A stretch of 64,000 bases of DNA from Alphaproteobacteria bacterium. GTDB lineage: Bacteria; Pseudomonadota; Alphaproteobacteria; SP197. The stretch lies in assembly GCA_964291265.2 (NCBI GenBank), contig OZ219747.1:2496001-2560000 (forward strand). The letters are read 5' to 3'. Positions 28,964 through 64,000 of the stretch are shown here, piece after piece. The translations under genes were made by a program, and so were the position numbers. The number at the start of each line of letters is the position of its first letter. Within the stretch, counting starts at the first letter, position 1. Under the pieces are notes generated by a model. It worked only from the letters and a program-made list of their open reading frames with translations, had not been told where the DNA came from and searched no databases.

Positions 28964-29554
28964 CCCTGCACTCATCGGAGCAATACACATGCCCCCGGTC
29001 ACACGACCGGCAGAGAACAACCTGCTGTTGGCAACGCCTGCAGTTGAACAGTCGTCCTGTCGTGCACACCGTCCGTCTCGAGAGCGGGGGTGGACCCGGA
29101 CGCAAAATGGCTCGACAATACACGGGAGTTCGGTCCCCCGTGACCGACTCGTCCGGGTGCTGCGCCGGGGGTCGTCGGTAAAACTCTGCCCGGCGCCGCA
29201 TCGCTCTTTCTTTCGATGCCGATCTAGCATCCACCCGGGGCGGCGGCAAAGACGCCGCCCCGGGACCGGACAACGCGACCCAGACCACAGGGAAAACAGA
29301 CGATCCCGCGAGTGCCTCGGAACCGAAACCCTCCCGGCAACCGTCACCAAGACCGAAGCAGAGGCCGACGGAACAATCCGAACCGGACCAAAACGACAAT
29401 AGGAAAAGACGGCGACGCTCGGGGAGACAATCAACCGAACACTCAAACCACGACAACAGGACGTGACAATAGGACCTGACAACAGGGAAGAAACACGACC
29501 CTGACAAAGCGCGGCAAATCGCCGAAATCCCGCCGTTCTATGCAGCCATCAACA
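28964..29554 (-). mobile_element. Truncated left end of the IS21-primase element (relative of 40839-41420)
   Basis: Reverse complement starts TGTTGATGGCTGCATAGAACGGCGGGATTTCGG exactly as at 40839 and includes the 5' part of the Zn-finger ORF. Confidence 0.92.
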
Positions 29555-29670
29555 ACTGCGTCGCCGCCTACAGGCGCCGCGCACGTGCGTTCAGAACCGG
29601 CCGCAACATCACAAACTTGGCTCGCAGCGTATCGACCATCGCTTCCATGACATCATCGATAGCAAATCCA
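29555..29670 (-). pseudogene. 5' remnant of an ISAzo13-family transposase
   Basis: Translates MEAMVDTLRAKFVMLRPVLNARARRL*AAT, homologous to MEAIVNTLRSKFVVLRPFLNERARRLWAAT of the element at 59.3-62.7 kb. Confidence 0.82.
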
Positions 29671-29892
29671 CCGAAAAACAGTCTGTTTTGGCGAGAATCC
29701 TTGCGAGAAACTGCCCTCATGCGCGCGCGCAACGTTACAAACGCCTGACGTCAATGAGGAACCAAGCGGAATCCAGCGTGGGATCGTCTTGGTTCTGGGT
29801 CGTTTGCAGTGGCTGCCGGTACGGAATAAACTCTCGGCTCGGTATGCCTTCAGGCCCTGCCATGGAGACCCATCCATCGAGGAGTGAGCGCG

Positions 29893-35198: not shown

Positions 35199-36035
35199 CT
35201 AGTCGATTCCGAAAGCCTTGAGGATCGCGGCCGCATCCGGTCCGGCGAGGGCCGACCACTCGGCGGACATGGTGGCGCCGATGGCGGCGAGATCGGCAGC
35301 GAGTTGCTGGCCGGGGGCACGAACGACCATGCCGTTGGCCGCGAGTTGCGCCCGGTACCAGTCGGTCAGCTCCCGCGCTCTTGCGGTGCCAGCCACTTCC
35401 GCCAGCAGCGTGGCGGCACGCAGGCAGTTTCGGGCATGGTCACCCAGGGCATCGAACCCGTCCTGGTTCACGAGCATGTAGTTGCGCGGTAACCAGCCCT
35501 GAACATCGTAGAAATAACTCAGGTGTTCCCAGACCTTCCGACAGTCGAAACCGGTTGCGGCGGACGAGACGAAGGCTTCCGCCCTTCCGGTCGTCAGCGC
35601 CTGGATGAGTTCGGTTGCTTCGATCCGCACCGGCACCATGCCTGCCAGTTCGGCCAGTTGCGAGGTGGCGGCGTTGTACGTGCGGAACCTGATCCCTGCC
35701 ATGTCAGGGATACCGGTGACTTCCCTGTTGAAATAGAGACCCTGTGGCGGCCACGGCACCGCATAGAGCAGGATCATGTTCTGCTCGGAGAGAACCTCTT
35801 CAAGCTTGTCCCTGGCAGCCCTCCACAGCCGATCGGATGCCTCGAACGACGAGGCCAGGAATGGCACCGAATCGAATCCGAACAGCGGATTCTCGTCCTG
35901 GTGGGCGCTCAGCAGGCGTTCGCCGATGGGCACCTGGCCGGTCTGCACGGCCTGCTTGATCTCGTTGCCCTTGAAGAGCGAACCGCCGCCGTGAACGACG
36001 ATCTCGAGTTCGCCGCCTGTGCACACACCCACGGC
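35199..36035 (-). pseudogene. dctP: TRAP transporter substrate-binding protein DctP, 3' part (5' part at 54370-54505)
   Basis: GGELEIVVHGGGSLFKGNEIKQAVQTGQVPIGERLLS, YAVPWPPQGLY, FRTYNAAT; rejoining across the 8-bp TSD gives ...AEAVGVCTGG... Confidence 0.9.
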
Positions 36036-36060
36036 CTGCCCATCGGACACATTTCGCGCT

Positions 36061-38154
36061 CAGGGCTTTTCTTTTGTCGTCCCGGCGCTCGGCGCACGCA
36101 GGATTCTGGGGGTGGACATCCCGTTTTCGCTGTGGCAGTGTGCCGGCATGACGACGCTTGCGACCCCGGATTCCCCTATCGACCTTCGCGAGGTGACGGT
36201 GCGCCCGACCCGTGGCGCACGTGAGCACCGGCTCTGGGATCGTCTGGTCAAGGAGCATCACTACCTGCGGTTTCACGGCATCATCGGCAAGGGCCTGCGC
36301 CATGTCGCCCTGCACGGCGAGACCTGGGTGGCGCTGGTTGGCTGGCAGCCGGGCTCGTTCAAGCTTGCTGCACGCGACCGCTGGATTGGCTGGACTGCGG
36401 AGCAGCAGTTCCGCCGCCTGCATCTGATCGCGAACAATTCCCGGTTCGTCATTCTTGGCCCGAGAGGGGTGCCGAACCTGGCGTCCCGCGTGCTCGGCCT
36501 GAGCCTTCGGCGGCTGTCCGCCGACATCGAGGCCGCGCACGGATACCCAGTGTTCCTCGCGGAGACGTTCGTCGACATCAAGCGCTTCGCCGGAACCTGC
36601 TATCGCGCGGCGAACTGGCGCTCGCTGGGATTGACGCGCGGCTTCGGTCGCAAGCCCGGCGGCGCCGCACGCTTCCGTCACCACGGCCAGCCCAAGGAGA
36701 TCTTCATGTACGAACTGACCGACGGCGCCGCCGAGGCGCTGAGCCGGGACGCGATCCCGGAGAGCTGGAACGCGGAGCAGCACGACCAAGCCGGACCGAT
36801 GGCCGCGTCCGGGCTGCGCAGTCTGTTCGCCTGCCTGGGCGAGGTGCCCGAGTGCCGCAAGCCCCGGGGCAAGCGCTATCCGCTGAGAACCATTCTCGCG
36901 ATCGCCGTCGCAGCCCGGCTCGCCGGCTACCGCGGCGTGAGCGCATTCGCTCAGTTCGCCGCCCTGCTCACCCAGGAACAGCTGGCGGCGGTGGGTGCGT
37001 TCTACAGCCCGTCGAAGAAGCGCTACACGGCGCCCACGTCCACAACCTTCCACAGCATCCTCGCCAACCTGCCGCCCGAGACCCTGGACCACGCCATCGG
37101 CCTGTGGACGGCCCAGCAGGCCGGTGCAGACACACCGCTCGCCATGGACGGCAAGGACATCCGCGGCGCCTCCAAGCAGACCAAAAACGGGCGGCGGATG
37201 ATGGTCGCAGCGGTCGAGCACGGAACCGGCATGGTCCTCGGCCAGGTCGAGGTCGACGCGAAGAGCAACGAGATCCCCGCCGTGCGGGACCTCGCCAGCA
37301 GCATCGACGTCACGGGCCGCATCGTCACCCTGGACGCGATGCACGCTCAGCACGAGACCGCGCAACGGCTTCTCGAGCGCCGCGCCGACTATGTCATCAC
37401 GGCGATCAAGGATAACCAGGAGACCATGCTCGACGACCTCAAGGCCATCGACTTCAAGGGCGCGGCTTCGTTCGAGACACTCGACAAGGGGCACGGACGC
37501 ATCGAGCGCCGCCGCTGTGCCGTGGTCGACATCTCCGGCGCCGAGTGGGACGGCTACGCCGCTCTCCACGGTCGCCACCAAGCCATCCGCATCGAGCGCG
37601 AACGCGAGATCTGCAAGACCAAAGAACGCAGTGTCGAGACCACCTGGTGCCTCACCTCGCTCGCTCCCGAACGCGCCGGACCCGAGATGCTTCTGGCCCT
37701 CGTGCGCGACCACTGGGTCATCGAAAATCGACTCCACTACGTACGCGACTTCACCTACGACGAGGACCGCTGCAGGGTCCATGTGCGCCATCTGCCACGC
37801 AACCTCTCCTGCCTGACAAACGCCGCCATCGCCATCGTGCGCTGCGGCGGACATTTCGACTATATGCCCGAAGCCAACCGGCACTACGCCGCTCGCGCCC
37901 AGGACGCGCTCGACGCTATCCTCATCCCGCCCGGCGGATGAACCTTCGCTCCTGACCCCGCGCCACAAGCCGGGAACGCGCCGCCTGACGGCGCAACAGG
38001 ACAGTTCTGCTCGCACACTCGAAAAAACGTGCCTGCGAGCCCTGATGCACCAGCAGTGCCCACTGAAACCAGCCCACAGTGAACCCGGGCGCCTCAGTCA
38101 TGCCAGGTCCCTGTCACATCAACAATCCACAGGACTGAAAAAAGAATGGTCCTG
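36061..38154 (+). mobile_element. ISAs1-family element, copy 1
   Basis: TIRs CAGGGCTTTTCTTTT / CAGGACCATTCTTTT; 10-bp TSD ATTTCGCGCT at 36051-36060 and 38155-38164. Confidence 0.95.
36148..37941 (+). CDS. DUF4338 (DruA-like)-ISAs1 transposase fusion
   Basis: N-terminal HHYLRF, RDRWIGW, NNSRFVIL, NLASRVL, ETFVD, GTCYRAANW; C-terminal AMDGK, KSNEIPA, VTLDAMHAQ, IKDNQ, HWVIENRLH. Confidence 0.93.
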   Translation: MTTLATPDSPIDLREVTVRPTRGAREHRLWDRLVKEHHYLRFHGIIGKGLRHVALHGETWVALVGWQPGSFKLAARDRWIGWTAEQQFRRLHLIANNSRFVILGPRGVPNLASRVLGLSLRRLSADIEAAHGYPVFLAETFVDIKRFAGTCYRAANWRSLGLTRGFGRKPGGAARFRHHGQPKEIFMYELTDGAAEALSRDAIPESWNAEQHDQAGPMAASGLRSLFACLGEVPECRKPRGKRYPLRTILAIAVAARLAGYRGVSAFAQFAALLTQEQLAAVGAFYSPSKKRYTAPTSTTFHSILANLPPETLDHAIGLWTAQQAGADTPLAMDGKDIRGASKQTKNGRRMMVAAVEHGTGMVLGQVEVDAKSNEIPAVRDLASSIDVTGRIVTLDAMHAQHETAQRLLERRADYVITAIKDNQETMLDDLKAIDFKGAASFETLDKGHGRIERRRCAVVDISGAEWDGYAALHGRHQAIRIEREREICKTKERSVETTWCLTSLAPERAGPEMLLALVRDHWVIENRLHYVRDFTYDEDRCRVHVRHLPRNLSCLTNAAIAIVRCGGHFDYMPEANRHYAARAQDALDAILIPPGG

Positions 38155-38199: not shown

Positions 38200-38781
38200 A
38201 TGGACGACCCTGTTTCGATTCCCAGCGCGCTTTCCTCGCCACAAGGCATGGCGAAGTTGTCGCGGATTCTGGCGCAGCCGGAGGTCTCACGTGCCGAGAT
38301 CGGCCGCAGGGTATGCGACGCTTTCGGCTTTGTTGACTTTCGCGGGTGACCGCAGGTCACGAGTTGCCTTTGTTGCCCTTCGCCGTCTTGAGCGGGCGGG
38401 CAGGATCGTTCTTCCTTCGCCCCGCCGTGGCGGCGGCCGGGGTGCCGTGGCTCGCAGGGAGGTGGCGGTTGCCGAGCCTGTGGGCCTTCCGGCGAGTGCC
38501 GGTGCGGCCTGAGGGCCTTGAGCTTGTCCGGGTCGAGGGATCGGAGCTTCGTCTGATCTTCAACGAGCTGATGGCGTCGGAGCATCCGCGCAGCGCCCGT
38601 CTTCACGTCGGCCGTCAGCTGCGCTACCTGATCGGATCGTCGCATGGCTGGCTCGGCGGGTTCCTGTTTGCTCCGGCGACGCGGGTCCTGGCGGCGCGGG
38701 ATGCCTGGCTTGGCTGGGACGATGCGAGCCGCGAGCGGCATCTCGACGAGGTGATCGGTCTGGCGCGATTCCTGATCCGTC
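38200..38781 (+). pseudogene. 5' part (DUF4338 domain) of the IS4 transposase
   Basis: SRAEIGRRVCDAFGF, NELMASEHP, GRQLRYLIGSSHGWLGG, ARDAWLGWD, ARFLIRP; one internal stop plus frameshifts; continues at 52601. Confidence 0.85.
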
Positions 38782-39036
38782 CGTAGATGCCATCATAACA
38801 CCCCATCTCGCTTCAGGGTTGATTTATAACGATTTTCCATTTCGCCTCCTGTGTCAACGGCGTTTTGCCCCGCGTTTTTGCCCCGGTTCGCGGAAGATCG
38901 TCCTTCCCGATGTCTGCCGGCCCCCATGTCTGGCAAGGTTTTTGCGGGTATTCGGGGTGATGTGTTCTGTGGTTGTCCACGTGCGGTCCGAGGTTCCGCC
39001 TTGCCCTGCGAGCGAGGCGACATGCAGCCTGTGGTT

Positions 39037-39262: not shown

Positions 39263-39574
39263 CTAGCCGCGCGGCGGTTCGATGTCCTCAAGGGCCTCGA
39301 TGTCGGCCTCGACGATGATCTGCAGACGTTCTCCGCCAGCCGTGTCGCGCAGGGAGTCGGGGAGACTGTCGAGACAGTCCTGATCATGCTCCTGCCATGC
39401 ACCGAGCTCGGCCACCGCATCGCGCCAGCGTTGCGCACGGGAGCGGCACTCGCAGGACTTTCGCTGGTGGACGGCAGGGATGCCGTATCTCTCGGCCTGC
39501 TCCGGATCACGGGGATGGAACCCGGTCATGCAAGCCGTTGCACGGGCGGCCATGCAGCCTCGCAGGGCGGTCAC
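39263..39574 (-). CDS. Small hypothetical protein (RSR.QRW.DAVAEL...IEPPRG family), possibly decayed
   Basis: Start overlaps the LSR stop; clear homology to 44924-45214. Confidence 0.65.
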   Translation of the reverse strand: MTALRGCMAARATACMTGFHPRDPEQAERYGIPAVHQRKSCECRSRAQRWRDAVAELGAWQEHDQDCLDSLPDSLRDTAGGERLQIIVEADIEALEDIEPPRG

Positions 39575-40587
39575 AACTCGAACTCGCCCTGGTTCGGGTC
39601 CGCGTCGGCGACGCTCCGGCAGCCGGACAGCGCCGCGACGACCCGAGGGGCCTCGAGATCCGCCGCTGCGATGGCCCAGGGCGCCCCGGTGCAGACCTGC
39701 CGTGCGGGCAGGATGCCCGTCCGGATCAGCCGGCGCACGACCGAGGGATCGACGCCGAGCTGCGCCGAGGCCTCGCCGAGGGACAGTTCGCCGCGCTCCT
39801 GGCGTTCGCCCTCGCGGTATCCCGGAATGCCGCGACGGGAACGGAAGACGCGCACCCGAACCCGGTTCCAGCCGTTGCCCTTGGTCGTCTTGCGGCCCAT
39901 GAGGTTGAGAAGCCGGGCCATCTGCTCGTCGGGCAGCTGCCGGGCCAGTCCGGCGACCAGGTCCTCGACCTCCTTGTCGGACGTATAGCGATGCTCGCCG
40001 GTACGGAAGCGCTTCACCTCGATCTCGGTATGGTCGCCGCCGCGCCAGTGCAGAAGCAGGTGCACCGTGTCCTGTCGCATGCTGGCGGTGATCTCCACCA
40101 GGGCCGCGCGCAGGATGTTCTTGCGCAGCTGCGGCGTTGCGGCCTCATGGGACCATGCGCGCTCCAGGTCGGCCCCCAGAGCCAGAAAGGCGTCACGGTC
40201 TGCGCACCCCGCTTCTCGCGCCTCGCGGGTCGCCTCGAGCGCCCGAAGCTGCTCCTCGCGCTCGCAGACCTCGGCCAGGCAGGCCTCCCACCGCGCCGCC
40301 AGGTTGTGGAGAATGTTGTGGTTGCCGGGATCAACCGCGTCGAACTGTGCCTGCGCACGACCGGCCTTGTACCGGGCTTCCTCCAGCGCCGAGGCGGCGA
40401 GTCTGATCCGTGCCGACGTATCGTCGCCGCGCCGCTCGAACGCCTCCAGCGCGGCAGCCACGCCAAGGGGCTGCGCCGCAGCGAGAACGGCCGCGCTCAC
40501 GGCCCCGTCGACCCGTACGCCGCCGAAGCCAATGCAGGTGCTGCCCCCCGTGACGACGTCACCCGGACATTGGTAGCGGTGCGACGT
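39571..40587 (-). pseudogene. Large serine recombinase, C-terminal part
   Basis: SHRYQC...CIGFGGVRVD (Zn ribbon), coiled coil, QFDAVDPGN, LHWRGGDHTE, C-terminal HTH LPARQVCTGAPWAI. Confidence 0.9.
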
Positions 40588-41262
40588 TAAGCGTTTGCGC
40601 GATTTTTGACGTGGATTCCGTCGGTTTTGCTTGAATTGTCTGCTGGTCTGGGGTGATTGCCCCTCGACCGACTTGCAAGAAGTCGGCCGAGGGGCTTGTC
40701 TCCGTGACGGTGAGATCACCGGAGGCCAGTCAATGTCGCACGTTTCCTTCCCGGGTCCCATACTTTCCTGCGCTCATGTCTGGCCTCTCCTTGAGAGGAT
40801 TGATGCGGCCGAGGCGGAGCGCTGCCGCCTGGAGGGATTGTTGATGGCTGCATAGAACGGCGGGATTTCGGCGATTTGCCGCGCTTTGTCAGGGTCGTGT
40901 TTCTTCCCTGTTGTCAGGTCCTATTGTCACGTCCTGTTGTCGTGGTTTGAGTGTTCGGCTGGTTGTCTCCCCGAGCGCCGCCGTCTTTTCCTATTGTCGT
41001 TTTGGTCCGGTTCGGGTTCCGTCGACCTCTGCTTCGGTCTTGGTGACGGTTGCCGGGAGGGTTCCGGTTCCGAGGCACTCGCGGGATTGTTTGTCTTCCC
41101 TGTGGGCGGGTCGCGTTGTCCGGTCCCGGGGCGGCGTTTTTGCCGCCGCCCCGGGTGGATGCTAGATCGGCATCAAGAGAAAGAGCGATGCGATGCCGGG
41201 CGGAGTTGTGACGCCCCCCGGCGCAGCACCCGGACGAGCCGGTCACGGGGGACCGAACTCCC

Positions 41263-41793
41263 GTGTATTGTCGAGCCATTTTGCGTCCGGGTCCACCCCC
41301 GCTCTCGAGACGGATCGTGTGCACGACGGGACGACTGTTCAACTGCAAGCGGTGTCAGCGGCAGGTTGTTCTCTGCCGGTCGTGTGACCGGGGGCATGTG
41401 TATTGCTCCAAGGAGTGCAGGGAATCGTCCCGGATCGAGCGGCGCCGCGCGTCGCGTCGTCGCTACCAGAGCACGCTGAAGGGCCGTGAGACGGGCCGTC
41501 ACCGCCAGCGGCGTTATCGGCTCCGCAAGGCGGAGGAGGCGCGTGCGTTGAAGGCCAGGGCGGCGATGGTTGCCGAGATCATGGGCACGCAGACGTCTGC
41601 TGTGGTGCTGCTTGGCGACGTTCCGGCGGTGTCTGGAGACGCCGGTTCTGAAGAAATCGTTACGGACCACCCTTCCCGACTGCTGCCGACCTCCCTACCT
41701 GCGGTTGTGAAGGCGCGAGAGCGGCGCGAATCGCCGCTTCGGTGCGCCCGGTGCGGACGGGTCGTGACGCATGTGGTGCTGAGGGACCTGTGA
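41263..41793 (+). CDS. Cys-rich Zn-finger, Arg-rich accessory protein upstream of istA
   Basis: CKRC...CRSCDRGHVYCSKEC, basic helix, terminal CARCG; the true start may be ~50 nt downstream. Confidence 0.75.
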   Translation: MYCRAILRPGPPPLSRRIVCTTGRLFNCKRCQRQVVLCRSCDRGHVYCSKECRESSRIERRRASRRRYQSTLKGRETGRHRQRRYRLRKAEEARALKARAAMVAEIMGTQTSAVVLLGDVPAVSGDAGSEEIVTDHPSRLLPTSLPAVVKARERRESPLRCARCGRVVTHVVLRDL

Positions 41794-41825
41794 TGCGGCG
41801 TTGAGGAACCAAAGGGAGGGAGTTC

Positions 41826-43319
41826 ATGGCGATCGACGAGGACACGCGGGCGACGATCGTGCGGCTGTCGCGGGCCGAGGGCTGGGCTGTGGGGACGATT
41901 GCCCGGCATCTCGGCGTGCACCACGGCACGGTGACGCGGGCGCTCAAGGCGTCGGGGCAGGAGCGGCGGCCGCGGGCCAAGCTCATCGACCCCTTCGTTG
42001 CCTTCCTCGGGGAGCGTCTTGAGGCGTCGCCGGACCTTCCGGCCAGCACGCTCTGGCGACAGGTCGTGGCTCTGGGCTACCGCGGCGGCGAGGATCACTT
42101 CCGTCACGACCTGCGCCGCCTCGGGCTGAGGCCGGTGAAGAGGCCCGAGCCGTCGCTGCGGCTGAGCTTCCTTCCGGGCGAGCAGGCGCAGGTTGACTGG
42201 GCCGAGTTCGGGAAGGTCCGCATTGGCCGGGCGGAGCGCAGGCTCATGGGGCTTCTCGTCACCCTCAGCTACTCGCGCCAGACTGTCCTGAGCCTGTTCC
42301 ACGACGCGCGGATGGCCAGCTTCCTGCAAGGCCATGTCGAGGCTTTCGCGGCATTCGGGGGTGTGCCGCGGAGGCTTCTGTACGACAACCTGAAGAGTGC
42401 CGTGGTGACGCGCCGCGGCAAGGCGGTCACCTATCATCCGATGCTGCTCGGCCTCGCGGCCCACTATGCCTTCGAACCGAGCGCCGCCTGGCCCAGGAGC
42501 CCGCAGGAGAAGGGCCGCGTGGAACGCCGTGTGCGCTTCGCGCGCACCGGGTTCTTCGCCGGGCGCGACATCACGGTCCCGCTCGGCGAGCTCAACGCCG
42601 CAGTTCGGGAGTGGTGCTTCGGCGCCGCCGCGGAGCGGCCCTGGCCGGACGACGACAGTCTCCTGGTGCGGGACGCCTTCGCCCGGGAGAGGGAGCACCT
42701 GATCGTCCTTCCCGCCGATCCCTTCCCGCATCACGAGGTCCGCCCGGTGCGCATCGACAAGACCTGCCACGCCCGCTTCGACACCAACGACTACAGCGTT
42801 CCGGGTAGCTTCTCCAAGGCCCTGCTGACGCTGGTCGCCGACCGCGACGAGGTTCGCATCCTCGACGGCGCCGACGAGGTCGCGCGCCACCGACGCTCCT
42901 ACGACAGGAAGCAGGCCGTCACCGATCCGGAGCATGCCAGGGCGATCGCCGCGGGCAAGCGGCGGGCCCGCTCCATGAGCGTCCGCGACCGGGTCCTGCG
43001 CACCGTGCCGCGGGCCGAGGAGATGCTGGCGCGCGCCGGGACCAACGGGCGCAACGTGGCCTCCTGCGCCCGGATGCTGGAGACGCTTCTCAACGCGCAC
43101 GGCGCCGACGCTCTCGACCGGGCTGTCGCCACGGCGCTGGAGCGCGGCTCGTGCCACCCCGAAACCGTGCGCGTCATCATCGAGGAGCGCCGCCGGGAGC
43201 AGGGCCTGCCGCCCCTCAGCATCGCCGACGACGGCCGCGGCGGCCGTGGCACGACGCCGCGGGGGACCGCTCTCGACGCCTACGACAGGCCCGAAGCCAG
43301 CGCCAGGAACAAGACATGA
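41826..43319 (+). CDS. istA: IS21 transposase IstA
   Basis: PGEQAQVDWAEFG, TLSYSR, FGGVPRRLLYDNLKSAV, PQEKGRVER, FDTNDYSVP. Confidence 0.95.
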   Translation: MAIDEDTRATIVRLSRAEGWAVGTIARHLGVHHGTVTRALKASGQERRPRAKLIDPFVAFLGERLEASPDLPASTLWRQVVALGYRGGEDHFRHDLRRLGLRPVKRPEPSLRLSFLPGEQAQVDWAEFGKVRIGRAERRLMGLLVTLSYSRQTVLSLFHDARMASFLQGHVEAFAAFGGVPRRLLYDNLKSAVVTRRGKAVTYHPMLLGLAAHYAFEPSAAWPRSPQEKGRVERRVRFARTGFFAGRDITVPLGELNAAVREWCFGAAAERPWPDDDSLLVRDAFAREREHLIVLPADPFPHHEVRPVRIDKTCHARFDTNDYSVPGSFSKALLTLVADRDEVRILDGADEVARHRRSYDRKQAVTDPEHARAIAAGKRRARSMSVRDRVLRTVPRAEEMLARAGTNGRNVASCARMLETLLNAHGADALDRAVATALERGSCHPETVRVIIEERRREQGLPPLSIADDGRGGRGTTPRGTALDAYDRPEASARNKT

Positions 43320-44017
43320 GCGAGCTCAGGGAGCGTGCCCGGGCGCTCGGCCTCCACGGGCTCGTCGAACGCTGGGACGAGGTCGCCGGGACCGCATGGA
43401 TCGAGGAGGTGGTCAGCGGCGAGGAACAGGCCCGCAGGGCCCGCAGCCACGAGCGCCGCCGCGCCGCGGCGCGGCTGCCCGCCTTCAAGCCCCTGGCGGA
43501 CTTCGACTGGACATGGCCGCGCGACATCAGCCGGGCTCATGTCGAAGCGCTCCTCGGCCTCGGCTTCGTCGACCGTGCGGACAACGCCGTGCTCGTCGGC
43601 GGGCAGGGCACCGGAAAGACCATGATCGCCGCCAACGTGGCTCACCAGGCCCTGCTGCACGGCCACACCGTCCGCTTCGAGAAGGCGCCGGAACTGCTCG
43701 AGGCACTCGCCGAGACCGTCTCGCGCAGCGAGCTGCGCCGCCGCCTCGCGATCCTCGCCAGGCCCCGCCTGCTCGTCCTCGACGAAATCGGCTACGTGAC
43801 CCTCGAAAGCCACCATGCCGACATCCTCTACGCCATCGTCTCGCGGCGCTATCAGCGCCGCTCGACCATGGTCACGACAAGCCTCGCCTTCGCCCAGTGG
43901 GACCGCGTCTTCCCCAGCGCCTCCGGCATCGCCGGCACCGTCGACCGGCTCATGCACGACGCAACCCTCATCTCCATCGACAGCGACTCCTGGCGGCTCA
44001 GGCGTGAAACCCGATAA
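43316..44017 (+). CDS. istB: IS21 helper ATPase IstB
   Basis: LADFDW.WP, GGQGTGKT, LLVLDEIGY, RRYQRRST, VDRLMH; ATGA overlap with istA. Confidence 0.94.
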   Translation: MSELRERARALGLHGLVERWDEVAGTAWIEEVVSGEEQARRARSHERRRAAARLPAFKPLADFDWTWPRDISRAHVEALLGLGFVDRADNAVLVGGQGTGKTMIAANVAHQALLHGHTVRFEKAPELLEALAETVSRSELRRRLAILARPRLLVLDEIGYVTLESHHADILYAIVSRRYQRRSTMVTTSLAFAQWDRVFPSASGIAGTVDRLMHDATLISIDSDSWRLRRETR

Positions 44018-44897
44018 ACCCCGCCGCGTCGACTTCGACGCCGTCAAGCGCATGCCGTTCGAACGCATCGCCGCCGACTGGGGATACGTCCGCGACGAAC
44101 AGGCCTCGACACGCGCCAACCCCGTCCTGTGCGCACCCGGCCTGCCGAAGCTCGTCACGAAGTGCCTCAACAACGGACACTGGGTCTACTTCAACACCCA
44201 GAACGATGAAGACAACGGAACCGTCATCGACTTCATGCTCAACCGCGGACTGGCCTTCGCCGACATCTGCACCCGCTTCGCAGCACCCGACGCCGCGCCA
44301 CGCGACTTCCGCAGCCTCTGGGCCGCGGCAACGCCCGATGCGGCCCCGGACTGGCTCACCGGGCGCGGCATCCTCCCGGAGACCCTCGACACCTGCCGCC
44401 CCCTGGTCCGCCGCGACCACAACGGACGCGTCCTCTTCGCCCATCGCAACAGGAAGCGAAAGCTCACCGGCTTCGAGATCGGTCCCCCCGACGGACCGAA
44501 ACGCTTCGCCACCGGTGGAACCCGAAGCCTGTTCGCCGTCCGCGCCGGAACCGCCGCGGACCTCGAGGCCCTCGTCATCACCGAAAGCGCCGTCGACGCC
44601 CTCAGCCTGGCCCAGATCGACCAATGTCCCCCCAGCCACGCCTTCCTCTCCACCGCCGGGGCACCCTCGCGAAGACAGCACGAACAGATCAGCCTCGCCG
44701 CAAGCAGCCTGCCCAACGTCAGGACCATCGTCCTCGCCCAGGACCACGACGAGGCCGGAGAGCGACAGGCCGAAACCCTGCGCAAAAAGATGAAGCTCCC
44801 CTCCCACGTCTCGTTCCACAGACGCAGACCGCCGGAAAACGCCGACTGGAACGACGTCGTCAACGCCAGGACCAAAGAACCACAAGCGAGATCATGA
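44004..44897 (+). CDS. DUF3991/Toprim primase-like protein
   Basis: HWVYFN...DNGTVIDF N-terminal domain; Toprim motifs ITESAVDALS, FLSTAG, LAQDHDEAG, ADWND; GTG start overlaps istB. Confidence 0.85.
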   Translation: MKPDKPRRVDFDAVKRMPFERIAADWGYVRDEQASTRANPVLCAPGLPKLVTKCLNNGHWVYFNTQNDEDNGTVIDFMLNRGLAFADICTRFAAPDAAPRDFRSLWAAATPDAAPDWLTGRGILPETLDTCRPLVRRDHNGRVLFAHRNRKRKLTGFEIGPPDGPKRFATGGTRSLFAVRAGTAADLEALVITESAVDALSLAQIDQCPPSHAFLSTAGAPSRRQHEQISLAASSLPNVRTIVLAQDHDEAGERQAETLRKKMKLPSHVSFHRRRPPENADWNDVVNARTKEPQARS

Positions 44898-44923
44898 CCA
44901 CGTCCGTCACAAGGAGACCACTC

Positions 44924-45214
44924 ATGCCCCTCACGCCCGCCGAAAAGCAGCGGTGATACCGGGAACGGCGCAAGGCCGGCATCCCTCCCGTCCACACCCC
45001 AAAGCACCGTGACCGGCGCTCGCGACCGCAACGCTGGAACGACGCCGTGGCCGAACTGCGCTCCCTGCAGGACGAATGGCGTGACCACCTCGACAGCATC
45101 CCCGAAAGCCTCCGTGACACGCCTTACGGAGAACGCCTGCAGAGCGTCGCCGATGCCGACATCGAGGCCCTCGAGGACATCGAACCGCCACGCGGCTACG
45201 GAAGGGATACGTGA
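44924..45214 (+). pseudogene. Small basic protein MPLTPAEKQR*YRERRK...RSRPQRWNDAVAEL...IEPPRGYGRDT with a premature TGA
   Basis: AGGAG RBS; single in-frame TGA at 44954; homologous to 39263-39574. Confidence 0.75.
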
Positions 45215-45808
45215 TCCCGCAAGACCCTTGAACGCGGTCACGCGTTACCATCCAGGAATGAGAACGTCTCACCCCGACGCGCCGCTCAGCCTCCCCGGGA
45301 AACACCCGGGCCGTCCAAACGACACCGCATCACGAGACTGCCGCAGCCTCTGAGCCGCAGCGACGCCCGATCCGCCGCCGGGCTGGCTCACAGGTCGCAG
45401 CATCCGCCCGAAAACACTCGACGCCTGCCGCACCCTGCAGGACGAATGGCGTGACCGCCTCGACAGCATCCCCGAAACCCTCCGTGACACGCCTTACGGA
45501 GAACGCCTGCAGAGCGTCGCCGATGCCGACATCGAGGCTCTCGAGGACATCGAACCGCCACGCGGCTACGGAAGGGACACGTAATCTCGCAAGACCCTTG
45601 AACGCGGTCACGCGTTACCATCCAGGAATGAGAACGTCTCACCCCGACGCGCCGCTCAGCCTCCCCGGGAAACCCCCGGGCCGTCCAAACGACACCACAT
45701 CACGAGACTGCCGCAGCCGCTGAGCCGCAGCAACGCCCGATCCGCCGCCGGACTGGCTCACAGGTCGCAGCATCCGCCCGAAAACACTCGACGCCTGCCG
45801 CACCCTGC
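45063..45808 (+). repeat. 370-bp tandem duplication, followed by a decayed primase copy to ~46030
   Basis: 45063-45432 ~ 45433-45802; the second half of each unit resembles 44300-44405; 45700-46030 resembles parts of 44300-44870. Confidence 0.9.
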
Positions 45809-46718
45809 GCCGCCGCAACCGCAACGCACGCAGCCTCTTCGCCCAGCGCAACAGAAACCGTCAGCTCTCCAGCCTCGAGATCGTCCCGCCCGACGAACCA
45901 CGACGAGGACGGAGAACGCCAGAACGAAACCACGCGCAAAAGCCTGAAGCTCCCCTCCCACATCACGTTCCACAAACGCCGAACGCCAGAAAACGCCGAC
46001 CGGAACGACATCGTCAACGTCAATGCAAGACCAATGGGATCCAACAATAGGCAGAAAACAAAGACCGGGCGGACCTTCGTCCAATGCCGCACGTTCTCCT
46101 GTCGTGGTCACCCACTCACACGATCAGCGCCCAAAAGAGCGGTTCTCCGCCAATATCCCGCCGTTCTAAATCGCCGCCGACAGGGATGCCCGCATTGCGG
46201 CGGTCGTCTTCACAGCGCGCGGTATCCGCGCAAGCCGCACGCGCTTGCGCCTGCTCTTCGCGGCGACAACCGCCGTTTCAGCTTCTGCTGTGCTGAGTGC
46301 AGGAGCCGGACGACTCCGCCCTCGGTGCGCTTCTTCGGCCGGAGGTTCCGTGCGGCGCCGGTATACCTGGCTGCGAGCCTCCTGGTTCTGTGCGGCAGTG
46401 TTCCCCTGGCGAAGGCGAGCCGCATGTCTGGCATCCCGGAGAGGACGCTTGGCCGGTGGCGTCGATGGTGGCGGGAGAGGTTCCCGGCGACGGCGGCGTG
46501 GCGCTGGAAGCGTGGCGATCTGGCGGTGGAGGCGGACGAGCCTCCGCTTGTGGCCCTGGTGCGCTTGATGCGCGGCGGATCGTTTCGATCGCGCCTTCTG
46601 CGGAGCCTGGTCTGGCTCATGCCGTGGACCGGCTTCTGCAGGATCGTCGATGGTCTGTCGCCGCCCGCAGAGAGTGCCTGTAGTGCGATGACATAGGACC
46701 GTATAGGGCCTTCCTCCC

Positions 46719-48236
46719 ATGGGACGACGAGGGAGGAAGGCCGTCGTGGTGACGAAGGACGAAGCGGACGCCGGGGACGCCTGGACGCGGCTGCGCTTTG
46801 CGGTGGTTGGCCCGCTGCTGGCGTCGCCGCCGCCGAAGGGGGGTCTGCGGGCCGAGCTTCAACGGCTGTCGCGGCGGGACTGGGAGCATCCCGTCAGGGG
46901 CGGCACGATCCGCTTCTCGGTGTCGACGATCGAGCGCTGGTACTACAAGGCGCGGTCGGCCGACCGGGATCCGGTGCGGGCGCTGCGCCGTCGGGTGCGC
47001 TGCGACGCCGGTCGTGCGCGGAGCGTCTCGCCCCTGCTGATGGCGGCCTTGCGCGACCAGTACAGGGCGCACCCCACGTGGTCGGTTCAGCTCCACCACG
47101 ACAACCTTTGCGCGCTGGTCGAGGCCGACCCTTCGCTCGGGCCGATGCCGTCCTATGCGACGCTGACCCGGGTCATGCGTTCGGCGGGCCTGGAGCGGCG
47201 GCGGCGGCAGCGGAAGTTCGGTGGTGAAGCGGAGCGGCCTGCGGTCGAGGGGCGCGAGGTGCTGAGCTACGAGGTCTCGCGCAGCCATGCCCTGTGGCAC
47301 GCCGACTTCCACCATGCGCGGACCTGTCGCGTGCTGACGCCGTCCGGGGAGTGGAGGACGCCGATCCTGCTCAGCTTCATCGACGACCACTCGCGTCTCG
47401 TCTGCCACATGCAGTGGTATCTCGGGGAGACCACGGAGATCTTCGTTCACGGCATCAGCCAGGCCTTCATGAAGCGAGGGCTGCCGCGGTCCCTTCTGAC
47501 CGACAACGGATCGGCGATGACGGCCGGGGAGGTGCAGGAGGGACTGCACGCCCTCGGCGTGCTGCACCACCACACGCTTGTCCGCAGCCCGTACCAGAAC
47601 GGCAAGCAGGAGGTGCTGTTCGCCCAGGTCGAGGGCCGCCTGATGGCGATGCTCGAGAACGTCGAGACCCTGACCCTGCAGGACCTGAACGACGCCACCG
47701 TCATCTGGGTCGAGCGCGAGTATCACCGCCGCGTACACCGCGAGACGGGGGTCACGCCGCTCAGGCGCGTGATCGACAGCGAGGACGCCTCGCGGACATG
47801 CCCGGACAGCAGCGAACTCCGGGCCGCCTTCCGCATCAAGGTGCGTCGCAAGGTGCGACGCTCCGACGCCACGGTGACGGTGGCGAGTGTCCGCTATCAA
47901 CTGCCGGCGCCGTGGCGCCACCTGCGCGAGATCGACCTGCGCGTCGCCCGCTGGGACCTCTCCGGCATCGACATGGTCGACGGCCGCACCGGGGACCGCA
48001 TCTCGACCCTGCGTCCGGTGGACAAGTCTCGCAACGCCGAGGGGCTCCGCCGCCGGACCGGGCGCCGGAGAGAAGACGACGAGGTGAAGCCACAGACCGG
48101 GCCGGCGCCGCTGCTCAAGCGCCTGCGCGACGAGCAGGACGCCACCGGCCTGCCCCCGGCATGGTTGCCCTTCGGCAAGGATGCCGGCCCGAACGACGAA
48201 GGCAAGGACAACAACGATCAGGGAGACATGTCATGA
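46719..48236 (+). CDS. Mu/TnsB/IS481-like DDE (rve) transposase
   Basis: LWHADFHH, FIDDHSR, RGLPRSLLTDNGSAM, PYQNGKQE, YHRRVHRETGVTP, RKVRRSDATV; start may be GTG ~46746-46749. Confidence 0.92.
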   Translation: MGRRGRKAVVVTKDEADAGDAWTRLRFAVVGPLLASPPPKGGLRAELQRLSRRDWEHPVRGGTIRFSVSTIERWYYKARSADRDPVRALRRRVRCDAGRARSVSPLLMAALRDQYRAHPTWSVQLHHDNLCALVEADPSLGPMPSYATLTRVMRSAGLERRRRQRKFGGEAERPAVEGREVLSYEVSRSHALWHADFHHARTCRVLTPSGEWRTPILLSFIDDHSRLVCHMQWYLGETTEIFVHGISQAFMKRGLPRSLLTDNGSAMTAGEVQEGLHALGVLHHHTLVRSPYQNGKQEVLFAQVEGRLMAMLENVETLTLQDLNDATVIWVEREYHRRVHRETGVTPLRRVIDSEDASRTCPDSSELRAAFRIKVRRKVRRSDATVTVASVRYQLPAPWRHLREIDLRVARWDLSGIDMVDGRTGDRISTLRPVDKSRNAEGLRRRTGRRREDDEVKPQTGPAPLLKRLRDEQDATGLPPAWLPFGKDAGPNDEGKDNNDQGDMS

Positions 48237-49063
48237 ACCGCCAACACCTCACCCATTACGGCCTCAAGTGGAACCCCTTCGCCGCCGACCTGCCGGTCGA
48301 GGGCCTTCTCGCAACGCCCGCGATCGACAGCTTCTGCCGCAGGATCGAGCGTCAGCTCGTGCGCCAGGGCGGCTTCGCCGTGGTGGCCGGCGAGCATGGC
48401 ACCGGCAAGAGCGTCGCCCTGCGCCTGCTCGACGAGCGTCTCGAGACCGCGGAGGGCCTCGACGTCGCCGTGCTCGCCCATCCCTCGTCGAGCACCGCAG
48501 ACTTCTACCGCGAGATGACCGACCTCTTCGGCATCACGACACTGCGCCGGAACCTCTGGGCCGGCTTCAAGGCCCTGCGCGAGTGCTGGCTCACCCATCT
48601 CGAGGACACCCGCATGCGCCCGGTCCTGCTCGTCGACGAGGCCCAGGAGATGCCGCAGGCCGTGCTCACCGAACTGCGCCTGCTCGCCTCCACGGAGTTC
48701 GACTCGCGCGCCATCCTCAGCGTCGTCCTGGCCGGCGACAGCCGCCTGCTCGCCAAGCTGCACAGCCCCGACCTGCAAGCCGTCGCCTCGCGGGTCCGTC
48801 AACGCCTCGTCATGACGCGCTGCGAACCCGACGAACTGCTCCGCCTGCTCGACCACCTGCTCGACGCCGCCGGCAATCCAGGCCTCATGACCCCCGGCCT
48901 CAAGGAGACCCTCGTCGTCCATGCAGACGGCAATCCGCGCTCCCTGACCATCCTCGCCGACAACCTCCTCGCTGTCGCCCTCGACACCGACCGCGAGGTG
49001 CTCGACGAAAAGCTCTTCCTCGAAACCTGGGGCGAACCCATCCCGCCGAGGCGCACACGATGA
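48233..49063 (+). CDS. ExeA/TnsC/MuB-like AAA+ ATPase
   Basis: YGLKWNPF, GEHGTGKS, LLVDEAQEM, VLAGD, SRVRQRL, GNPRSL; ATGA-coupled to the transposase. Confidence 0.92.
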   Translation: MNRQHLTHYGLKWNPFAADLPVEGLLATPAIDSFCRRIERQLVRQGGFAVVAGEHGTGKSVALRLLDERLETAEGLDVAVLAHPSSSTADFYREMTDLFGITTLRRNLWAGFKALRECWLTHLEDTRMRPVLLVDEAQEMPQAVLTELRLLASTEFDSRAILSVVLAGDSRLLAKLHSPDLQAVASRVRQRLVMTRCEPDELLRLLDHLLDAAGNPGLMTPGLKETLVVHADGNPRSLTILADNLLAVALDTDREVLDEKLFLETWGEPIPPRRTR

Positions 49064-50007
49064 TCGGCCTGCCAACCCGCAGCCCGGCCGAACTCGAGGA
49101 CCGGCCAACCGAGGGGCAGTGGCTCGTCGACAGCCTGTGGGGCCGCGAGGCCGTCGGCATCATCGGCGGCGAACCCAAGTGCGGAAAGTCCTTCCTCGCC
49201 CTCGATCTCGCCGTCGCCGTCGCCGCCGGCGTCCCCTGCCTGCGCCGCTTCCCGGCCATGCACCCCGGACCGGTGCTCATGTTCGCCGCCGAGGACGCCG
49301 GCCACATCGTGCGACGCCGCCTCCAGGGCATCGCCGCCGCAGCCGGCGCCGACTTCGACACCCTCGACATCGCCGTCATCGACGTCCCCGCACTGCGCCT
49401 CGACCACCCAACCGACCGCCAGCGCCTGCTCGAGACCGTCGAGCGTCACGGCTCCCGCCTGCTCATCCTCGACCCCCTCGTCCGCCTGCACGGCGTCGAT
49501 GAAAACGCCGTCGCCGAGATCGCGCCGATCCTCGGCTTCCTGCGCGACGTGCAGCGACACTCCGGCGCCGCCGTGCTGCTCGTCCACCACGCACGCAAGA
49601 GCGCCGCCAGCCGGCCCGGACAGGCCCTGCGCGGAAGCAGCGAGCTGCACGCATGGGGCGACAGCAACCTCTACCTGCGGCGCCGCCACGAAACCATCCT
49701 CATGACCGTCGAACACCGCGCCGCACCCGGACTCGCCGATCTCGACATCGAACTCACCGACAGCGGCAACGGAGCCGCCCTGCAGCTGCGGCAACAGGAA
49801 CCCGACGGCGCCAGGCCGCAGCCGCCAACCCCCGAACAGCGCATCGTCCAGGTCCTCGCCGACGCCGATGCCCCGCTCTCGCTGCGCCAGGTCCGGGACC
49901 GCGTCCCAACACGGAACACGACCGTCGCCACGCTTCTAGCCAAGCTCGTCCAGGAAGGACGTGTCGCACAGGACGGTCCCGGTGCCTATCGCGTCGCCAA
50001 AGCCTGA
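49060..50007 (+). CDS. AAA_25 / RepA-like (SF4) helicase with C-terminal wHTH
   Basis: WLVDSLW, GGEPKCGKSF, FAAED, LLILDPL, VHHARK, ALRGSSEL; ATGA-coupled to the ATPase. Confidence 0.88.
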   Translation: MIGLPTRSPAELEDRPTEGQWLVDSLWGREAVGIIGGEPKCGKSFLALDLAVAVAAGVPCLRRFPAMHPGPVLMFAAEDAGHIVRRRLQGIAAAAGADFDTLDIAVIDVPALRLDHPTDRQRLLETVERHGSRLLILDPLVRLHGVDENAVAEIAPILGFLRDVQRHSGAAVLLVHHARKSAASRPGQALRGSSELHAWGDSNLYLRRRHETILMTVEHRAAPGLADLDIELTDSGNGAALQLRQQEPDGARPQPPTPEQRIVQVLADADAPLSLRQVRDRVPTRNTTVATLLAKLVQEGRVAQDGPGAYRVAKA

Positions 50008-50041
50008 CCGCAACAACCAGGCGCAAAACGCCCCGACGCCA

Positions 50042-50106
50042 GGCGGTTCCCGGTTCCCGGTTCCCGTTCACCCTGGGAGTTCAGGTGGGAACCGCCAACG
50101 GGAACC
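50042..50106. repeat. Iteron-like GGTTCCC x3 with two inverted GGGAACC copies
   Basis: GGTTCCC at 50045, 50052, 50059; GGGAACC at 50087, 50100; 10-bp IR GGCGGTTCCC/GGGAACCGCC. Confidence 0.85.
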
Positions 50107-50141
50107 ACCCCCCGTCCACCACGCAGGAGGCTCGACAGACC

Positions 50142-51005
50142 ATGATCCGGTCCTGGGACAATCAGCATCTCGATGACATCCGCAACCAGCCCCTCGAACC
50201 ACTCGCCCTGCGGCTCGGCTACCGAAGAGACCCGCGCGACCCGCGACGCTTCAAGCGCCACGGATCCGTCATCAGCGTCAACCGACAACGCTGGTTCGAC
50301 CACATCACCCAGTCCGGCGGTGGCGGCGCCATCGATCTCGTCATGCATGCACACCGCTGCAGCTTCAACGACGCCGTCGCACTCCTCACCGCACGCTCCG
50401 GCGGCAAGGGGCCGAGAACACCAACGCACTGCGAGGAAACCTGGCACGCCGTACGCCACTACCTCGCCCATGACCGCCGCCTGCCAGACCGTTGCCTGGA
50501 CGCTTGCCGACAGCACGGCCTCGTCGCCGCCGACGAACGCAGAAACGCCGTCTTCACATGCACCAACGCACGAAGAGACGTCTCCGGCGCCGAGATCGTC
50601 GGTACCGTCCCCAACGCAGACGGAAAGCAGTACAGAGCCATGGCGCGTGGATCACGCAAGGCCGCCGGCAGCTTCTGGATCCCCGTGGACCGCTCCATGC
50701 CACGCACCATCATCATCACCGAAAGCGCCATCGACGCCCTCTCCGCATGGTGCCTCAAGGAATGTCGGCAATCCGCTACCGTGATCCTGTCAACCGCCGG
50801 CATCGCTTACCGTCTCCCAACATGGGCCGAAGCCTGGACGCCAAAGCGCATCCTCGTCGCCTTCGACGCCGATCCCGTCGGAGAACAGGCCGCCGAGCGC
50901 CTCGTCAGCCAAGACCCAAGAGCTCTCCGCATGAGACCCCCAGACGGACACAAAGACTGGAACGACGTCCTCAAGGCACGAACACCAGCCTTCCCTTCCA
51001 AGTAG
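50142..51005 (+). CDS. DUF3991/Toprim primase-like protein
   Basis: AGGAGG RBS; WFDH...GGGGAIDLVMH...F.DAV; ITESAIDALS, LSTAG, VAFDADPVG, KDWNDVL. Confidence 0.88.
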   Translation: MIRSWDNQHLDDIRNQPLEPLALRLGYRRDPRDPRRFKRHGSVISVNRQRWFDHITQSGGGGAIDLVMHAHRCSFNDAVALLTARSGGKGPRTPTHCEETWHAVRHYLAHDRRLPDRCLDACRQHGLVAADERRNAVFTCTNARRDVSGAEIVGTVPNADGKQYRAMARGSRKAAGSFWIPVDRSMPRTIIITESAIDALSAWCLKECRQSATVILSTAGIAYRLPTWAEAWTPKRILVAFDADPVGEQAAERLVSQDPRALRMRPPDGHKDWNDVLKARTPAFPSK

Positions 51006-51096
51006 CCTTCAAGAACCGCAAACCAAGCGCAGCGCGAAAGCTCATGTCCACTAAATTGCCCGATCAACGCATCATCAATCTGCCTGAAGGCGCTCA

Positions 51097-52139
51097 GACG
51101 TGCCGTTGTCCGCAATCTGCATCCGCCGGCCGCAGCAGCCGCAGCGCAGAAGGCCGGCCAGAAGCGCCTTGCCGGCCCGCGGCGCCCCCCGGTTCCCCAC
51201 GGTGTTCGCCTCGATCACCCTCCGGTTCCTCTCGTACTCGTCCCAGCCGATGTAGCCCTCGTGGCGGTCGCGCAACAGAACCGACCATGCGGCCTCGGGC
51301 TTCATGATCCCTCGGCGTACCTTCCTGGTCCCGCCAGCGTCAACCGTCACCTCCTGGCGCCGGCGCCCGTACACATAGGCGCCGGCGTAGAGCGGGTTGC
51401 TGAGCATCAAGGCCAGCGTCGAGTTCTGCGGCACCCGCCACGCGATCCCGCCACCCTTGGGGTCGCGAACCGGGATCCTGATGTCGCGCTTGCGGAACCA
51501 GAGATGGACCTGACGGATGCTGCGCAGTTCGCGGAACTTCCGGAACACCAGGTCGATCGCGTCGCGCTGGTGCTGGTCCGGCGTCTTCTCGATGCCGTGA
51601 CGGTCGACCTTCTCGAAGCCGGCCGGCAGGTGCAGGAACAACTCCCCGCGCTCGGCCAGCGCCTGGCGGCTCTCCAGGGACCGCTGGCGGAACACCGCAA
51701 GCTCCATGTCCGCAAACTGGCCCTTGAGACCCAGAAAGGCCCGGTCGTCGACCATCGCCGGATCGTGGATCCGCTCGCGGTCGCCGACCAGGCAGCCGAC
51801 GACGGCGCAGATCTCCAGAAGCGCGTGCCAGTCCCGACCATTGCGCGCCAGACGCGAGGCCTCAAGGGCCAGGACAAGGCCGACCGTGCCGCTGCACACG
51901 GCCTGCAGAAGGCGCTCGAAGCCCGGACGCCTCACCCCGCCGCCCGAAACGCCAAGATCGTCGTCGATCACCTCGACCTTCGCAAAGCCCAGCCCCCGGG
52001 CATGATCCTCGAGGGCGTACTGCAGCTTGCGCCGCTCGACGTGGTTGCGCACCTGCATCTCGCTCGACTGACGGATGTACACGATCGCCGAGCGCGCCAG
52101 GTGGCCGGCGGTCAGCCGCGCGTCACGCATCACCGTCAT
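51097..52139 (-). pseudogene. Large serine recombinase, N-terminal part (684 aa when rejoined)
   Basis: AIVYIRQSS, VIDDDLGVSG, RPGFERL, EASRLARN, LSNPLYAGAYVYG, HEGYI, LLAGLLRCGCCGRRM. Confidence 0.93.
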
Positions 52140-52211
52140 CGCCCGCCCCCTCCCGCAACGCCGCCATCACATGTTCGATCAGCGCCGCGACTGCCGGCTG
52201 CAGGGCCCGCC

Positions 52212-52595
52212 TCAGGTGCGGCCTGTGCCAGGCCAGTGGCGTCTCCTGGAACAGGTCCGTCCGGAACACCAGCGAGATTGTCCTTCATCGAGTTCCTCCT
52301 CTGTCTTCCGCAAGGAACCCAGGAAGGATGTCGCGAGATCATGCAGGTCCGCCAGCGCCTCCAGGGACAGCCTCGGTGCCGCGCGAAGCTCGTAGCGCGC
52401 GGACTCCGGCGACGTCATCCATTCCGCAATCCGGTGCCGCGTACCCTGGGAATCAACGACTACGAGAACCGGACGACCGTGAAGCGACCGCCTCACCCGG
52501 CATGTCACGCGCTGCCCGGCCAGAGGATGAAAGCGGTAATGCACCGTGATCTCCGCGCCAGGCGCAATGTGGGGATTCGCCAGGTAGCCAGCCAT
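52212..52595 (-). CDS. Small hypothetical protein upstream of the LSR (VHYRFHPLAG motif)
   Basis: ITVHYRFHPLAGQ...IAEWMT...PRLSLEALADL; the ATG overlaps the att core. Confidence 0.6.
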   Translation of the reverse strand: MAGYLANPHIAPGAEITVHYRFHPLAGQRVTCRVRRSLHGRPVLVVVDSQGTRHRIAEWMTSPESARYELRAAPRLSLEALADLHDLATSFLGSLRKTEEELDEGQSRWCSGRTCSRRRHWPGTGRT

Positions 52596-62725: not shown

Positions 62726-62728
62726 GAC

Positions 62729-63928: not shown

Positions 63929-64000
63929 CTCGCGGCGTAGTCCTCGCTCGCAAGCTCGCATTGTCCCACCCCGCGAGCACCCTAACGAACCGGGCGAGAG

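Follow-up and report, generated by a model that had tools for sequence, protein, structure and literature searches.

The IS21 element and its copies

The window analysed here (the whole stretch of 64,000 nucleotides, positions 2,496,001 to 2,560,000 of contig OZ219747.1, assembly GCA_964291265.2, from an Alphaproteobacteria bacterium) contains a 5,344-bp insertion sequence (IS) of the IS21 family at 40839-46182, which starts with TGT, ends with ACA and carries, coupled to its transposition genes istA and istB, a gene for a primase-like protein of the DUF3991/Toprim type. The element lies within a second transposon (referred to below as the host transposon), which has a DUF3991/Toprim gene of its own. 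Features of the IS21 element, in window coordinates, are:

40834..40838, no strand: target-site duplication GGGAT, left copy
40839..40888, plus strand: left terminal inverted repeat (TGT...), imperfect, ~50 bp
41263..41793, plus strand: Cys-rich leader gene, 176 amino acids, predicted Zn-binding
41826..43319, plus strand: istA, DDE transposase, 497 amino acids (D124, D187, E233)
43316..44017, plus strand: istB, AAA+ ATPase, 233 amino acids; start overlaps the istA stop
44007..44897, plus strand: DUF3991/Toprim primase-like gene, 296 amino acids; E193, D197, D246, D248 and D280 intact
44924..45214, plus strand: small basic open reading frame, 96 amino acids; premature stop in the window copy
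45215..46022, plus strand: non-coding tail, a 370-bp near-perfect duplication and decayed Toprim fragments
46133..46182, minus strand: right terminal inverted repeat (...ACA)
46183..46187, no strand: target-site duplication GGGAT, right copy
28964..29555, minus strand: left-end fragment of the same IS21, 94% identical; terminal repeat and leader-gene start only

The terminal repeats are imperfect, with 26 of the first 35 nucleotides paired and a perfect core of 14. An earlier reading of this DNA made without database searches (the sequence-only reading) had proposed these boundaries, the flanking GGGAT duplication, the gene order and the overlap of the Toprim gene start with istB, and all of them are confirmed. 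The 4.83-Mb genome holds 30 full-length copies, 97.7-100% identical to one another, 29 of them on the large contig. A target-site duplication flanks 26 (5 bp in 21 cases, 6 bp in four and 7 bp in one), the first 8 nucleotides of the left end are identical in 29, and the empty-site join is present in three sequencing runs. Given the number of full-length copies, their duplications and the empty-site join, this is not a chance arrangement of genes. Leader, IstA and IstB are full-length in all 30 copies and the Toprim frame is full in 29, which answers in the affirmative the earlier question whether other genomic copies keep the primase. The fragment at 28964-29555, previously noticed as a left-end relative, is indeed the left end of this same IS21, but a stub that reaches only into the start of the leader gene.

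IstA scores 222.8 bits against the IS21 transposase family NF033546 (cut-off 160), and its D124, D187 and E233 are invariant across 48 aligned sequences. IstB matches PF01695 (E 3.6e-50), with Walker A and B motifs present, and scores 191.4 bits against NF038214, slightly below the cut-off of 200. Transposase, ATPase behind istA, TG...CA ends and a short duplication agree with the family. The canonical description of IS21, in the sections of PMC10122671 drawn on here, allows only two open reading frames (ORFs) between the terminal repeats; the window element has five (leader, istA, istB, DUF3991/Toprim, small basic ORF) and is therefore a variant of the family and not a canonical member. With IS21 and IS5376, as presented in parts of PMC10122671 and PMC11208146, it shares a DDE IstA with an overlapping AAA+ IstB, TG...CA repeats, a duplication of mostly 5 bp and weak target specificity; unlike the two-ORF members described there, it is 5.3 kb long and adds to istA and istB a Cys-rich leader that is conserved, a primase-like gene coupled to them and a small passenger ORF.

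The leader protein has cysteines at positions 28, 31, 38, 41, 48 and 52, then a basic helix, then C161 and C164. Searches of Pfam, NCBIfam and PDB sequences gave no match of note for it, and the PHROG families only an HNH match at E 0.018.

The primase-like protein

The Toprim gene starts with a GTG that overlaps the last 11 nucleotides of istB. Its product matches Toprim_2 (E 3.5e-13) and, weakly, DUF3991 (E 5.5e-4). The AlphaFold2 model (from a 52-row alignment; predicted local confidence, pLDDT, 92) has an N-terminal domain before the polymerase domain, and its best Foldseek matches are the DnaG, Twinkle and T7 primases, the first of them an Aquifex zinc-plus-polymerase fragment. Residues 96-291 of the model superpose on the T7 gp4 primase with Z 15.3 and a root-mean-square deviation of 3.3-3.4 Å over 177-179 residues; the corresponding scores are Z 12-13 for DnaG cores and up to 10.5, over about 90 residues, for the Toprim cores of topoisomerases. 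T7 gp4 is also the sole match in a profile search of PDB sequences, and its E157, D161, D207 and D209 fall opposite E193, D197, D246 and D248. The prediction is thus of a primase core of the T7/DnaG type in which the acidic residues are preserved; E193, D246 and D248 are kept in 36/36 close homologues and D280 in 34.

The likeness to T7 gp4 and DnaG lies in the (modelled) polymerase-domain fold and the aligned acidic residues; what distinguishes the protein from them is that it appears to have neither the conserved N-terminal Cys ligands nor a helicase or helicase-binding domain. At 296 residues and without a helicase domain, it is also not an AEP-helicase fusion of the kind found in IEE (bioRxiv 10.1101/2023.06.07.543989). 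IEE, according to the part of that preprint drawn on here, resembles the Toprim protein in being primase-type and in acting on copy-out/paste-in ISs during the replication step (the role proposed below for the Toprim protein), but it is an AEP PrimPol-helicase that is encoded outside the IS and promotes excision, whereas here a Toprim fold is encoded inside the IS. (Prediction of a complex of IstA residues 1-455, IstB and Toprim residues 5-290 gave a score of 0.00, which speaks neither for nor against an interaction.)

Distribution among relatives

A scan of GTDB genomes with IstA confirmed 546 stretches, of which the best 80 loci, amounting to 54 distinct elements, were kept. (Samples in this work are ranked by similarity and do not constitute a census.) The leader lies upstream of istA in 79/80 loci (53/54 distinct elements), and a Toprim gene lies behind istB in 26/80 (9/54); where the terminal repeats could be called with confidence, this gene is between them. 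What will be called clade T consists of the window element, L001, L002-L012 and the elements of three same-genus genomes (among 32 relatives searched); it retains the Toprim gene inside the repeats in other genomes while IstA identity falls to as low as 48%. Pairwise NG86 dN/dS values within clade T are 0.21-0.66 for the Toprim gene (7 pairs), 0.27-0.40 for IstA, 0.12-0.42 for IstB and 0.46-0.73 for the leader, which indicates that the Toprim gene is under purifying selection. Its retention inside the repeats of relatives and this constraint uphold the contention of the sequence-only reading that the gene is a real and conserved part of the element. Clade H comprises 7 elements whose Toprim proteins are nearer to that of the host transposon than to those of clade T.

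A metagenome scan with the window Toprim as sole query yielded no relative. When host-type Toprims were used instead, the best 80 of 487 loci included 40 with istB directly upstream, 21 in which Toprim is fused behind a long N-terminal part, 2 that are host-like, 11 that are too short and 6 others; of 16 N-terminal fusions scanned, 14 are MobV relaxases, one is TrwC and one a helicase. The 40 istB-linked loci form a distant IS21-like lineage, W, of about 4.8 kb, present in many metagenome samples (e.g., L117, L147, L158 and L165) and composed of a Cys-containing ORF of ~160 amino acids, a ParB-like gene, istA, istB and an intact DUF3991/Toprim gene between long repeats. All five acidic residues are present in 21/21 lineage W Toprims examined, and this retention is not forced by the search, because the W motif departs from the catalytic-motif pattern of the scan. 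The W leader matches the window leader family weakly (best E 4.6e-5).

Origin of the Toprim gene

Three IS21 lineages (T, H and W) have a Toprim gene behind istB, and the gene, to judge by sequence comparison, comes from at least two captures. In the Toprim tree (all trees are quick IQ-TREE runs), clade T falls among the C-terminal domains of MOBP relaxases, H groups with the host transposon's gene and W stands apart; approximately unbiased (AU) tests reject a single clade of T and H (p-AU 1.8e-7) and one of T, H and W (2.8e-4). T, H and W are also separate in the IstA tree, where an AU p of 0.005 was obtained for a joint T and H clade with L034 excluded; L034 belongs to that clade, and the IstA tree is not used here as evidence of separate gains.

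The sequence-only reading held that two lineages of DDE-plus-ATPase elements converged on a Zn-finger and a primase as joint accessories. The part of this that stands is that IS21 lineages appear to have gained primase-like genes more than once. The coupling of Zn-finger to primase fails, in view of the very different frequencies of leader and Toprim gene among the 54 elements, and because the leader of the host transposon misses the IS21 leader profile (E 2.1). That the IS21 primase is not a recent copy of the host transposon's is correct (28% identity and separate positions in the Toprim tree), but its N-terminus, which had been thought different, is merely diverged: the two proteins are homologous end to end (hhalign 99.9%, 268 columns).

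Capture from a plasmid relaxase or conjugative plasmid is the likely origin of the clade T gene, judging from its relatives: all 12 long Toprim relatives scanned have a Relaxase-family match (8 of them above cut-off), and the plasmid searches, among the matches listed, gave DUF3991/Toprim genes and relaxase fusions that are only 22-38% identical. The MOBP/MOBV relaxase-DUF3991-Toprim fusions contain the same DUF3991-plus-Toprim module, and clade T is nested among the MOBP C-terminal domains; in contrast with these relaxase-linked primases, the window gene is free-standing and resides in a DDE element without a relaxase. Publications that mention DUF3991 concern, by title, plasmid or conjugative DNA, and no biochemical study of DUF3991/Toprim proteins was found in the literature search. 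(The primase of R1162, the one that has been tested, has another fold.)

The position behind istB in elements without a Toprim gene

The content of the corresponding position was read in 40 Toprim-less elements (5 others, lacking a usable istB end, were left out). In 21 of the 40 it is occupied by one family of small proteins, mostly 60-80 amino acids long, of which 20 end in F and 15 in PF; 17 of the 21 end in F with at least two acidic residues among the last eight (e.g., DDEIPF, DDDIPF). As background, 6 of the genome's 6,329 long frames end in PF; the C-terminus of the genome's own SSB (single-stranded DNA-binding protein) is DFDDGIPF. In PMC5872125, the SSB tail (DDDIPF) is described as a binding site for primase and further proteins of replication. 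A profile rebuilt from members of the small-protein family yields the same 21 elements, and the family is found in 0 of 55 Toprim-bearing loci. (One frame of the genome that is not SSB, G000:C2:2748539-2749552 on the minus strand, also has an SSB-like end, EDDEEIPF.)

Four further elements (L030, L038, L050:3238-3564 and L068) have a helical protein of 100-130 amino acids, with 138 homologues, in this position; its model (pLDDT 93) matches a DnaD domain at Z 5.3, tied with unrelated AAA+ lid domains. Two more (L035:7241-7699 and L053) have a winged-helix protein with weak matches to HTH_36 (E 0.015) and to a replication-initiation PHROG (E 0.0098). Nothing clear was seen in the position in the remainder of the 40.

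A possible role in copy-out transposition

IS21 has been proposed to transpose through a copy-out/paste-in pathway (PMC11208146, in part), in which replication turns a figure-eight intermediate into a double-stranded circle (PMC7780238 and PMC9333248, in the portions used here). The reading that we favor, tentatively, is that the Toprim protein, derived from a plasmid relaxase, primes the DNA synthesis step of this pathway. The pathway as proposed has IstA nick one strand and replication convert the figure-eight to the double-stranded circle. The first strand could be primed by the 3'-OH of the flank, the displaced single-stranded circle would need a new primer, and the Toprim protein would lay that primer, much as plasmid DNA undergoing transfer is primed by a relaxase-linked primase. 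The Toprim gene would then be an enhancer of transposition rather than a requirement, given that canonical IS21 functions in its absence. The position behind istB can be thought of as a swappable slot for replication helpers, in which many relatives have, instead, a small protein whose SSB-like tail may recruit host replication proteins. A broader possibility, slightly less likely, is that this is a dedicated third position serving the IS21 replication step, filled repeatedly by a captured plasmid primase, a dead primase or an SSB-tail mimic that recruits the host primosome. (The 47 left and 42 right ends of the assembly include no circle or tandem end-to-end junction, and none was seen in contigs of the three runs, which belong to one study; contigs drop rare forms, so that this absence says little.)

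A number of points weigh against priming by the Toprim protein. The need for de novo priming on the displaced circle is itself inferred. Most of the distinct related elements (45/54) have no Toprim gene; the sequence-only reading had named lack of the primase in close IS21 relatives as a result that would refute it, and the outcome is divided, in that the closest relatives all keep the gene but the wider subgroup is mostly without it. Conserved Cys ligands like those of the DnaG zinc domain appear to be absent from the N-terminal domain. In distant pairs the Toprim dN/dS is somewhat above that of IstA, and the variants among the genome copies (2 synonymous, 4 non-synonymous) are too few to judge. 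Intact Toprim frames in 29/30 copies are weak evidence of function, because all 30 copies also keep ~0.8 kb of decayed sequence before the right end. As to repeated acquisition, a joint T and H clade is not rejected on the IstA tree when L034 is included (p-AU 0.11), and therefore two gains, or one replacement in one slot, would fit equally well. Finally, D197 is replaced by N in 17/36 close homologues, and 7/7 clade H Toprims have lost the catalytic Glu together with the second DxD Asp. These dead proteins are still constrained (NG86 dN/dS 0.28-0.67, compared with 0.21-0.24 for their IstA), and catalysis is thus not the only thing that is kept.

The dead clade H proteins and the D197N substitution make a non-catalytic contribution the main rival, although an unlikely one. 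The Toprim protein might aid transposition by binding DNA, whether single-stranded or forked, or a replication protein of the host, and so protect the intermediate or steer insertion to replicating or newly transferred DNA; it also speaks for this that the small protein found in the slot elsewhere is non-enzymatic and has an SSB-like tail. On the other hand, the invariance of E193, D246 and D248 in the close homologues, and the five acidic residues of all 21 distant lineage W proteins, argue for retained catalysis.

It is improbable that the Toprim gene is a passenger, acquired from a plasmid at the right end of the element and without a role in transposition. Its clear kinship with plasmid relaxases would be expected of such a passenger, as would its absence from most relatives; moreover, junk sequence and a small passenger ORF found in other elements too are tolerated in this element, and the genome is full of recent IS copies. 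Purifying selection near that on IstA argues otherwise, as do retention of the gene while IstA diverges to 48% and the same position, orientation and istB coupling in three lineages with at least two sources.

More doubtful again is selection for cell-to-cell spread or for an effect on the host, through priming of incoming single-stranded plasmid DNA, for example, or through a Toprim nuclease. The setting of the gene's relatives, which are fused to relaxases or stand beside conjugation genes, would suit such a function, and some MOBQ plasmids need a relaxase-linked primase (MobA-primase) for their transfer (PMC12857230, in part). The element itself has no relaxase, however, 29/30 copies are on the large contig, and the predicted fold matches the whole primase polymerase domain, far above RNase M5 or topoisomerase cores.

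IS21 is structurally well studied and, in the parts of the literature drawn on here, is described as a two-gene system in which unnamed host machinery is left to hand the nicked donor complex over to replication. No IS21 with a primase, Toprim or SSB-tail gene was found described among the titles and abstract openings searched (which do not extend to subscription reviews, supplements or ISfinder), and among the matches listed in the IS21/istA/istB literature none contains 'toprim'. A primase-like gene that has apparently been gained at least twice, and whose coupled position is taken in other elements by an SSB-tail-like protein, draws attention to this handover step and makes it testable by the swap of one small gene. 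If priming by the Toprim protein is correct, a domain of plasmid conjugation has been co-opted by a DDE transposon; if the broader proposal of a dedicated third position holds, the window element is a self-priming DDE insertion sequence and the IS21 family offers a direct way into the replication of copy-out/paste-in intermediates.

The host transposon and insertion sites

The transposon into which the IS21 element has inserted is 5.2 kb long, without the IS21, which splits its leader gene. Its features are:

40588..51096, plus strand: host transposon, 5-bp duplication GACGT, 6 genome copies
46719-48236: rve integrase
48233-49063: ExeA-like ATPase
49063-50007: AAA_25 helicase-like gene
50145-51005: DUF3991/Toprim gene, intact

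All matches to NCBIfam transposase families are below cut-off. The same five genes are found in L111; the integrase occurs in 3/400 other genomes of the class, on short contigs, and its linkage to a primase is seen in L111 and G021.

The sequence-only reading suggested that an IS21 without a helicase may exploit this helicase-bearing transposon and that its copies may tend to sit in such elements. Two of the 30 copies do lie in the 6 host copies, with about 0.2 expected by length (P 0.016). Both flanks are multicopy in 15/30 IS21 copies, compared with 19% of 1,500 random sites (P 1.6e-4), and four copies lie wholly and one partly in other copies of the IS21 itself. Host-transposon genes are present in 0 of 54 Toprim-bearing loci of other genomes, although flanking sequence is short in many of the 21 contigs of the distant lineage. 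The excess thus reflects a general bias to repeated DNA and not use of the host transposon, and targeting of, or dependence on, that transposon, against which the reverse nesting in G021 also speaks, is very improbable and largely refuted. In this reverse arrangement (L198, G021:C2:251000-264000), host-type ExeA and AAA_25 genes lie behind the truncated T-type Toprim gene of an IS21 copy.

Nesting in the window extends to a third level (39263-40587 and 51075-52595), in that the host transposon in turn splits a large serine recombinase gene, which has a DUF5372 gene and a small-ORF homologue on its flanks. An intact copy of the recombinase gene is at G000:C2:3295931-3297985.

The small basic ORF

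The small basic ORF noted in the sequence-only reading is present and is intact in 27/30 copies; in the window copy and two others it is stopped by a premature TGA at codon 11, a position at which contigs from all three sequencing runs have a sense codon. Within the IS21 clade it is detected only in the window element and L002-L012. The ORF (ending EPPRGYGRD) is common to the IS21, the serine recombinase element and a four-copy element with an IS110-like transposase (an assignment made by eye, from the N-terminus), with sites at 44924-45214 and 39263-39574 of the window and at G000:C2:3033246-3034510; it appears to be a passenger that several mobile elements of this genome have in common. The decayed Toprim fragments in the tail that follows it are 81-83% identical to the Toprim gene.

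Elsewhere in the window, ORFs with a DruA (Druantia) N-terminal part and a DDE_Tnp_1 transposase-like part lie at 36019-37941, 38346-38786 and 60629-62458 (two near-identical copies and a fragment). The segments 29884-32520 and 62630-63961 encode proteins with many 9-residue Gly/Asp repeats (27-nucleotide period), which resemble calcium-binding repeats of the RTX type.

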